DNA of 64,000 nucleotides from assembly GCF_016903815.1 (NCBI RefSeq), contig NZ_CP069973.1. One strand, written 5' to 3'. Positions within the stretch are counted from its first letter, which is position 1. Each line of letters starts with the position of its first letter. A model generated the notes under the pieces. That model saw only the letters and a program-made list of their open reading frames with translations. It had not been told where the DNA came from and made no database searches. The translations under genes and the position numbers were made by a program. Below, piece after piece: positions 4,077-4,810 of the stretch. Source of the DNA: Escherichia coli (GTDB taxonomy: Bacteria; Pseudomonadota; Gammaproteobacteria; Enterobacterales; Enterobacteriaceae).

Positions 4077-4100
4077 CCTCCGGCATAGCCGGAGGTTTTT
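4077..4100 (+). terminator. Rho-independent terminator
   Basis: 8-bp perfect stem CCTCCGGC-ATA-GCCGGAGG followed by TTTTT. Confidence 0.65.
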
Positions 4101-4810
4101 CAAATGCGCCTATAAGGCTCTCTTACCAGCCGCGCCCTAACAGGCGCACACGATCTGACATTTGCATCCAACTTCGTTACTTACGGCCCGTAAACGGGCT
4201 GCCCGGATAGGGAATCGATAACTGCTCTCCCATTTTATCCTCTTCAAGCTGGTGCTTTATGTAATCCTGTATCTTCGCCGTGTTCTTACCCACTGTATCG
4301 ACGTAGTACCCTCTGCACCAGAACTCCCTGTTCCTGTATTTGAATTTCAAATCACCAAACTGCTCGTAAAGCATCAGACTGCTTTTCCCTTTCAGATATC
4401 CCATAAACCCGGATACGCTCATTTTGGGCGGGATCTCCACAAGCATATGGATATGATCTGCACAGCATTCAGCTTCCAGAATCCGTACGCTTTTCCACTC
4501 ACACAGCTTTCTCAAAATACTGCCTATTGCTCTACGCTTCTCTCTGTAGAACACCTGTCTTCGGTATTTTGGCGCAAAAACTATGTGATATTTACAGTTC
4601 CATCGGGTGTGCGCTAAGCTCTTTTCGTTCCCCATTGGGACCCCCTTTTGATTTCTTGTTTGACACTTGCAGTTGCCAGACCGCAAGGTGTTTTAACAAA
4701 TCAAAAGGGGTTTTAATAACTGGCTCAAAGCTGAAAGCTTTCCGGAACCCCCAGCCTAGCTGGGGGTTTTCTGTGCACAATAAAAAACCCGCCTGAGCGG
4801 GTTTGAGATT
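4100..4810 (-). mobile_element. IS200 (IS200/IS605 family) insertion, about 0.7 kb
   Basis: IS200 TnpA ORF plus two hairpins upstream of it: GGGGGTTCCGG-like stem-loop at 4748-4766 and terminator hairpin with U-tract at 4785-4805. Ends estimated to within about 10 bp. Confidence 0.75.
4177..4635 (-). CDS. tnpA: IS200 transposase TnpA (HUH Y1 type)
   Basis: MGNEKSLAHTRWNCKYHIVFAPKYRRQVFY… with HxH motif (ADHIHMLVEIPP) and catalytic-Tyr region (YIKHQ). Confidence 0.9.
   Translation of the reverse strand: MGNEKSLAHTRWNCKYHIVFAPKYRRQVFYREKRRAIGSILRKLCEWKSVRILEAECCADHIHMLVEIPPKMSVSGFMGYLKGKSSLMLYEQFGDLKFKYRNREFWCRGYYVDTVGKNTAKIQDYIKHQLEEDKMGEQLSIPYPGSPFTGRK

Follow-up and report, generated by a model that had tools for sequence, protein, structure and literature searches.

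An IS200C element beside a predicted terminator in the late operon of a Qin-type prophage of Escherichia coli

An insertion sequence within a phage operon, with a hairpin at its edge, raises the questions of which of the two owns the hairpin and what the insertion costs the phage. Both arise at the late-gene end of a Qin-type lambdoid prophage of Escherichia coli, contained in a 64,000-nucleotide stretch of DNA (the window). The reading preferred here, held with a probability of roughly 0.8, is that IS200C landed where the T-tract of an already present, predicted phage terminator ends, and that it is an insulated, nearly silent passenger of small cost to the phage. The coordinates of the features are collected in Table 1.

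The late operon and the IS200C element

The prophage is located in the terminus region, and its late genes are all on the minus strand. The gene order is Q, cspF (plus strand), cspB, IS200C, ynfU (plus strand), the holin gene, ydfR, rrrQ, and rzpQ. The holin gene is the first lysis gene downstream of IS200C, and cspB is a cargo gene inside the late operon. A preliminary description of the locus had placed an IS200 between cspB and the holin gene. This position is right (5086-5301 and 3405-3620), but ynfU, which separates IS200C from the holin gene and is convergent with the late operon (3840-4010, plus strand), had been overlooked. The orientation given for the element was also right, the minus strand of late transcription being shared with Q (6236-6988) and the lysis genes.

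The pR'-like promoter and the tR'-like terminator lie less than 130 nucleotides from the Q stop codon, with the terminator about 50 nucleotides past the promoter. The naming of 6205-6107 as candidate pR' and tR' follows from position only. Phage 2H10 has an almost identical region and the same Q-cspF-cspB-holin layout with no IS. The lambdoid late-operon layout was found here on one strand, with Q, a promoter-like site, a short-leader terminator, and then the lysis genes. Compared with the lambda late operon (Q, pR', tR', S-R-Rz), the same Q (PF03589), promoter-like site with short-leader terminator, and holin, lysozyme, and spanin genes are present. Unlike lambda, the Qin/2H10-type phages have pR' separated from the holin gene by a second native terminator and by cargo (cspF, cspB, ynfU) of about 2.6 kb.

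In strain 7/2, which has an identical region, a full lambda-like module for head and tail follows in the prophage. The prophage is damaged, with an IS1, a partial ISNCY, and a truncated tail-fibre gene. A second IS200 upstream of the tail-fibre gene of this prophage was considered and rejected, as none is annotated there.

Table 1. Positions of the element, its parts, and the surrounding prophage features in the window.
Feature	Position	Strand	Basis
IS200C, complete	4069..4780	-	712 bp relative to empty site; junction ambiguity 2 nt (4067-4778 to 4069-4780)
tnpA, 152-aa Y1 (HUH) transposase	4177..4635	-	Pfam PF01797 and translation
STnc490 (IS200 5'UTR/art200)	4645..4768	-	Rfam RF01405; art200 antisense sRNA on plus strand
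Left-end (LE) hairpin AACCCCCAGCUAGGCUGGGGGUU	4747..4768	-	fold -18.7 kcal/mol
Stem-loop hiding Shine-Dalgarno sequence of tnpA	~4643-4710	-	fold of 4630-4775
Right-end (RE) hairpin CCTCCGGCTATGCCGGAGG	4077..4095		terminator scan; folds -15.5 and -15.9 kcal/mol
Predicted phage intrinsic terminator AAACCCGCUCAGGCGGGUUUUUUAUU (minus sense)	4785..4804	-	terminator scan; fold -15.8 kcal/mol; outside IS200
Q late antiterminator (ydfT/quuQ)	6236..6988	-	Pfam PF03589 Antiterm, E=3.6e-54
pR'-like promoter TTTGCA-18-TAAAAT	6205-6176	-	promoter scan; just downstream of Q
tR'-like terminator	6130-6107	-	terminator scan; fold -23.9 kcal/mol, z=-9.1
cspB with cspA-type thermoregulator 5'UTR	5070..5462, CDS 5086-5301	-	Rfam RF01766, 158.8 bits; annotation
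ynfU, small zinc-binding protein gene	3840..4010	+	Pfam PF23499, E=3.5e-31; annotation
Class II holin gene (essD/essQ)	3405..3620	-	Pfam PF04971, E=4.4e-34; annotation
ydfR	3089-3400	-	ORF; Pfam DUF1327; annotation of identical strain 7/2 region
rrrQ lysozyme	2559-3092	-	ORF; annotation of identical strain 7/2 region
rzpQ spanin gene	2065-2562	-	ORF; annotation of identical strain 7/2 region

The limits of the element were taken from an alignment of the window with a K-12-like empty site (locus L002) and with phage 2H10. The inserted sequence is 712 bases in length and extends from about 4069 to 4780 (±2 nucleotides), which replaces the earlier limits of 4077-4810. The ambiguity at the junctions is a 2-nucleotide AA, the only sequence common to the occupied and empty junctions, and comparison of the two sites gave no target-site duplication. 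The exact ends are known to no better than 2 nucleotides, and the inserted length is 711 or 712 depending on the site: it is 712 bp relative to the K-12 empty site, while other E. coli-type copies are 711 bp, a difference of one T at a junction. Fixing the ends from tandem copies was tried and rejected, since two registers still fit. No terminal inverted repeats were found when the ends TTGTGCAC... and ...ATATTTAT were compared.

The only credible ORF in the 712-bp insertion is tnpA; tnpB is absent. The presence of an IS200 with its TnpA, as first described, was borne out. TnpA matches Pfam PF01797 (Y1_Tnp) with E=3.8e-38 over profile positions 2-121 of 121, its reading frame is intact, and the HUH motif DHIHM and Tyr125 are kept. 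Upstream of tnpA, the Rfam model RF01405 (STnc490) is matched at 146.4 bits, where the gathering score is 56, with E=1.2e-30 and an alignment over model positions 1-124 of 124. The LE hairpin sequence is an exact match to the first 23 positions of this model. Sub-terminal hairpins are present at both ends of the element, at 4747-4768 (LE, -18.7 kcal/mol) and 4077-4095 (RE, -15.9 kcal/mol). The RE hairpin is followed by TTTTT in the plus sense and by AUAUUUAUUU in the minus sense.

IS200 is a member of the IS200/IS605 family that contains tnpA only and moves by single-strand "peel-and-paste" transposition. Every sequence-testable defining trait of the IS200 group was found in the window element. 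IS200 of Salmonella, IS200C of E. coli, and IS1541 of Yersinia share a length of about 710 bp, a single Y1 HUH gene, and the lack of inverted repeats and duplication. The IS200/IS1541 group also shares the LE terminator hairpin, the stem-loop hiding the Shine-Dalgarno sequence, the art200/STnc490 locus, and the RE hairpin, so that no difference of substance separates the window element from the group. It differs from the copy in phage Lambda_ev058 by 1 nucleotide in 712 (99.9% identical) and shares 91.7% identity with a copy in Salmonella houtenae. The copy is full-length and looks functional from its sequence.

The hairpin at the left-end junction

The preliminary description assigned two hairpins to the element. 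The RE hairpin at 4077-4095 is genuinely part of it; the other, at 4785-4805, is the insertion target. This second hairpin has an 8-bp stem and a 4-nucleotide loop and is followed by UUUUUUAUU in the minus sense. A GC-rich stem-loop with a U-tract on the transcribed strand makes it a predicted intrinsic terminator. The case for counting it as the element's own terminator, newly placed so as to attenuate transcripts of the lysis genes, is that it lies immediately next to the IS and, read in the late-transcript direction, is followed by a good U-tract. The same hairpin and T-tract are, however, present at the IS-free sites. In the K-12-like genome the hairpin at 4785-4804 is unchanged, phage 2H10 has both hairpin and T-tract, and the empty site reads ...AAGCAGATAA|TAAAAAACCCGCCTGAGCGGGTTTGAGATT.... 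Because the empty site contains both, hairpin and T-tract are native to the phage. In addition, the Rfam model of the IS200 5'UTR begins only at 4768, and the left-end sequence conserved in other copies begins at about 4780. Ownership of this hairpin by IS200 is refuted by the empty sites. An origin of the hairpin as an IS remnant was considered as well and was ruled out, as K-12 and 2H10 have it without any IS.

Comparison with IS-free relatives, proposed earlier as a check on the hairpin, decides the matter, since the empty sites retain it. The span is free of the IS in phages Tritos, HannyBb, PhiR42_1, PhiR63_1, and 2H10. These phages have the hairpin too, and any attenuation that it causes therefore predates IS200. 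In the orientation of the IS, the sequence at the junction is AAACCCGCTCAGGCGGG-TTTTTTATT|GTGCACAGAAAACCCCC..., and IS200 begins where the T-tract of the terminator ends. The predicted terminator at 4785-4804 is the insertion target of IS200C and no part of it. A hairpin adjoining an IS need not be borne by the IS; here it is the landing site.

IS200C inserted in the spacer between cspB and ynfU with its left end against the T-tract. Because the left end lies against the T-tract, the element points in the same direction as the terminator and late transcription.

Transcription across the element and its cost to the phage

A transcript arriving from the cspB side would meet the native terminator (4804-4785) and, 17 nucleotides later, the LE terminator (4768-4747). 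A polymerase that passed the LE hairpin would make about 650 nucleotides of poorly translated RNA and then reach the RE hairpin. The left-end inverted repeat of IS200 is described as acting in both directions as a strong Rho-independent terminator, at which about 85% of incoming transcripts stop, a figure for ordinary polymerase in Salmonella (PMC5435999 and PMC4513863, both citing Beuzon 1999). By analogy, the LE hairpin here, which has the identical sequence, would likewise terminate incoming transcription. The 5'UTR stem-loop, art200, and Hfq are described as repressors of tnpA translation (PMC4513863, PMC5435999), and the stem-loop and art200 of the window element would block it in the same way.

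Transcripts from ynfU would approach from the other side. The RE hairpin with its T5 would stand in for the terminator that the insertion moved away. The distance from the ynfU stop codon to the RE hairpin and TTTTT (4077-4100; -15.5 kcal/mol) is about 67 nucleotides, and the native hairpin formerly lay about 66 nucleotides away. Judged from this sequence, the RE hairpin could serve as the terminator of the convergent ynfU, and termination is plausibly kept for both neighbours of IS200C.

The general idea that IS200 could attenuate late transcripts was reasonable, given what PMC5435999 and PMC4513863 state of the LE terminator, but the hairpin that had been named for it is not borne by the IS. 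The preliminary description had also made read-through by Q-modified polymerase a need created by the insertion. That need is older. The path of the IS-free phage already contains the tR'-like terminator (6107-6130) and the native predicted terminator before the lysis genes. Because the late transcript crosses two native terminators in any case, the dependence on read-through by Q belongs to the phage and was not made by the IS. To this path the IS would add 712 bp and one or two terminators.

A strongly polar insertion would have a different outcome. The LE terminator (about 85%), the RE hairpin, and 712 nucleotides of untranslated RNA would cripple lysis and virion production and aid the decay of the prophage. 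The LE terminator is documented as strong, and poor translation of tnpA would expose the RNA to Rho. The prophage of the close relative, strain 7/2, is already damaged as noted above; the insertion is fixed in 58 genomes, the top matches among them showing 100% identity; and one viral contig looks as though IS200 had mediated a loss of lysis, head, and tail genes. Against this, IS-free phages already cross two intrinsic terminators and the stretches antisense to cspF and ynfU, and two phage genomes bear the same IS in an antiterminated pR operon. Q-modified polymerase of lambda and phage 82 is known to resist both intrinsic and Rho-dependent terminators. A crippling polarity is for these reasons improbable.

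The preferred reading, a passenger of small cost, follows from the same facts. Since Q antitermination is already needed at two native terminators, the added cost is expected to be small. Because Q-modified polymerase resists terminators and two phage genomes carry the IS in the N-antiterminated pR operon, the effect on expression of the lysis and morphogenesis genes is judged more likely to be small than crippling. By analogy with lambda, Q-dependent transcription from pR' would read over the IS to the lysis genes. For this prophage the IS poses a question of polarity and presents no new regulatory device.

The insertion itself is an ordinary and already known one, annotated in RefSeq, where the gene is labelled "IS200/IS605-like element IS200C family transposase". 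Several complete E. coli genomes match a 1.7-kb stretch around IS200C at 100% identity. The spacer between cspB and ynfU contains the IS in 58 of 5,426 complete E. coli genomes and is empty in about 1,557. Since the insertion is common to these 58 genomes and their top matches are identical, it is probably the product of a single event.

The two GenBank phages that bear the element are Lambda_ev058 and PhiR63_2, with IS200 copies 99.9% and 98.8% identical, respectively, to the window copy. In both, IS200 lies between ren and ninB, in the direction of pR transcription, directly after CAGGCCTGCTGGTAATCGCAGGCCTTTTTA, which we take to be the tR2-type terminator of the lambda sequence. The same site is empty in dozens of sibling phages. 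The occurrence of the same IS200 in related phages had been named beforehand as evidence that would speak against attenuation. It was found in these two genomes at 98.8-99.9% identity, but in the early-right operon behind tR2 and not in the late operon.

Viral contig L130 appears to have lost its lysis, head, and tail genes through a deletion mediated by IS200. IS200 copies within one prophage are substrates for recombination, as this apparent deletion derivative suggests.

A recurrent junction in the IS200 group

The LE hairpin core was scanned for in one genome per species, which yielded at least 120 loci. Taxa among the loci listed include Yersinia pestis (IS1541), Vibrio, Brenneria, Edwardsiella, Mailhella, Bacillota, Oxalobacter, and others. 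A GC-rich hairpin and a T-run stand directly 5' of the left end in almost all of the 118 distinct listed sites with enough flank. With a strict fold-based test for hairpin and T-tract at the left end, 88 of the 118 listed sites were positive, compared with 43 of 1,096 controls (Fisher p=4e-74). Inspection by eye showed 29 of the 30 sites missed by the strict test to be false negatives, in which the fold paired an upstream A-run with the T-tract. A scanner limited to perfect stems recovered only 46 of the 118 listed sites, compared with the 88 of the fold-based test. The 42-nucleotide flank upstream of the listed sites folds with a mean of -18.7 kcal/mol, compared with -7.75 kcal/mol at random positions of the same loci (p=4e-54).

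The register of the junction is narrow. In 100 of the 128 sites scored, 6-9 nucleotides separate the end of the GC stem from the conserved GTG, and these tails are 87% T. At every site inspected, it is the left end that lies towards the T-tract. When viral contigs were scanned for the left end of the E. coli type, about 15 distinct prophage sites were found, and the junction was the same in 14 of them. A clear hairpin and T-tract were absent at 1 of the 118 listed genomic sites (L025) and at 1 of the 15 viral sites (L139/140/152). Among the IS200-group matches listed, at least about 130 other sites share the junction, the two phages included.

The usual target of the IS200 group thus appears to be a GC-rich hairpin followed by 6-9 T-rich bases. 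Such a target would resemble the element's own right end, in which the RE hairpin is preceded by GAAAAA and followed by ATATTTATT, about 9 T-rich bases. The bases just 5' of the LE hairpin are an A-run (GAAAA) in all variants seen, even where the preceding 8 nucleotides vary, and this conserved A-run could act as a guide that pairs with the T-tract. Because the A-run would fit the T-tract as a guide, and because a hairpin at a fixed distance mimics the right end, we infer structure-assisted targeting of terminators.

Two better-known members of the transposase family, IS608 and ISDra2, insert 3' of a short single-stranded target, which they recognise with a guide sequence immediately 5' of their left-end hairpin. 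They recognise a bare tetra- or pentanucleotide (TTAC, TTGAT). With the window element they share the transposase family, the sub-terminal hairpins, oriented insertion 3' of a short target without duplication, and a guide-like run (GAAAA in the window element) 5' of each hairpin that is complementary to T-rich cleavage and target sequences. Unlike theirs, the recurrent IS200-group target adds a GC-rich hairpin at a fixed distance. Group IIC introns home to intrinsic terminators and insert just past the stem-loop in the orientation of the transcript, which limits harm to the host. The mechanism is unrelated to that of IS200, with a ribozyme and reverse transcriptase in the intron and an HUH single-strand DNA transposase in the IS.

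The same association could arise with no targeting, if IS200 entered any T-rich single-stranded site and only harmless insertions, such as those beyond terminators, survived. Spacers distal to terminators are neutral landing places, and sites lacking the pattern exist. Terminator-like sequences have been reported as over-represented just upstream of ISs, most of all for IS200/IS605, and the authors interpret this as a niche in which transposase expression is kept low (bioRxiv 10.1101/2025.07.22.666184), which is in line with survival as the cause. Survival by itself would not predict so narrow a register or a left end that always faces the T-tract, and the pattern spans distant taxa and phages; selection would also keep other spots in a spacer and the other orientation. 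It is thus doubtful as the whole explanation, although survival of harmless insertions may contribute to the association. IS200-type insertions inside genes are known under selection, examples being hisD984::IS200 and IS1541 in the caf operon.

Direct targeting is on balance the somewhat better supported proposal. The transposases of the IS200 group may recognise the DNA form of a terminator, a single-stranded GC hairpin with a T-tract, as a mimic of the right end, and insert 6-9 nucleotides past the stem in a fixed orientation. An explicit statement of terminator targeting by IS200 or IS1541 was not found in the literature searched, and older subscription literature may have more. As far as was found, the statistical association has been published in the preprint, while the fixed register of the junction, the likeness to the right end, and the phage cases apparently have not.

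A hairpin and T-tract that mimic the right end provide a concrete model of the target. If it is true, intrinsic terminators would be a structure-guided "safe harbour" for these elements, in which termination is kept for both neighbours and tnpA is shielded from read-through, and IS200 could reside in antiterminated operons of phages that stay viable. The near-nucleotide regularity with which the insertions directly follow intrinsic terminators, in genomes and phages alike, may help to explain how the "dormant" IS200 persists at high copy with little harm.

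IS200 in phage genomes and related strains

Near-identical IS200 copies occupy the ren-ninB interval of two GenBank phage genomes, Lambda_ev058 and PhiR63_2 (Table). Each copy lies directly 3' of the tR2-type terminator and is oriented with pR transcription. Many sibling phages carry the ren-ninB site without IS200.

Four E. coli genomes with IS200 at the window's site carry an additional IS3-family insertion within the same 1.7-kb interval, which spans 3,014 bp as opposed to 1,701 bp (example, NZ_CP023960.1, 1061903-1064916). Strain 7/2 is otherwise identical to the window around the IS200 site, but comparison of window 1-700 with 8233-8930 of the strain 7/2 locus shows an IS1 between ydfO and gnsB that is lacking in the window. 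The window therefore derives from another member of this lineage.

Table. Coordinates of IS200 copies and predicted RNA features
Feature	Location	Strand	Description
IS200, phage Lambda_ev058	2501-3220 of locus		
IS200, phage PhiR63_2	2501-3220 of locus		
IS200, viral contig IMGVR_UViG_2563366879_000003 (L130)	~4700-5400 of locus		
IS200 right-end hairpin, predicted terminator	window 4077-4100	+	8-bp GC stem, then TTTTT
cspI with full-length cspA-type thermoregulator 5'UTR	window 1463-1848	-	Rfam, 112.8 bits
cspB with full-length cspA-type thermoregulator 5'UTR	window 5070-5462	-	Rfam, 158.8 bits
isrK (prophage sRNA family), weak match	window 8776-8857	-	25 bits, under the gathering score of 50
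pR'-like promoter (TTTGCA-18-TAAAAT) and terminator	window 6107-6205	-	Directly after Q

Target sites and tandem copies

Exceptions to the rule that the left end adjoins a pre-existing terminator are rare. The viral-contig group L139/L140/L152 contains a GC hairpin followed by CTGACTGA in place of a T-tract, and genome site L025 lacks a clear hairpin. The Yersinia pestis NCTC5923 loci L079, L080, and L082 contain the IS200-group element IS1541 in head-to-tail tandem, with 710 bp between left-end cores. At the junction, the right end of one copy (...GGAGGATATTTA) directly abuts the left end of its neighbour (TTGTGCCC), an arrangement consistent with the right end itself being a target-like site.

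Predicted RNA structures of the prophage

In the plus-strand sense, the right-end hairpin of IS200 has the form of a textbook terminator. It now lies approximately 67 nucleotides beyond the ynfU stop codon, at the former place of the native bidirectional hairpin. The prophage cold-shock genes cspI and cspB are cold-inducible cargo genes within the late operon. The weak isrK match sits between rem and hokD and has a good terminator at its end. A terminator of very high predicted stability (-23.9 kcal/mol, z = -9.1) lies within approximately 50 nucleotides downstream of the pR'-like promoter. This promoter-terminator region is near-identical in the IS-free phage 2H10 and is a candidate for a short late leader RNA like the lambda 6S RNA.

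Putative deletion between IS200 copies

Flank comparison places the left end of the L130 IS200 against the same cspB-side terminator as in the window. On the right-end side, unlike in the window, the flank consists of the beginning of a lambda-like side tail-fibre gene (MAVKISGVL..., 1147-aa ORF), and IS200 is also found just upstream of the side tail-fibre gene in other contigs. The L130 arrangement looks like the product of recombination between two same-direction IS200 copies in one prophage. Such recombination would remove the lysis, head, and tail genes.
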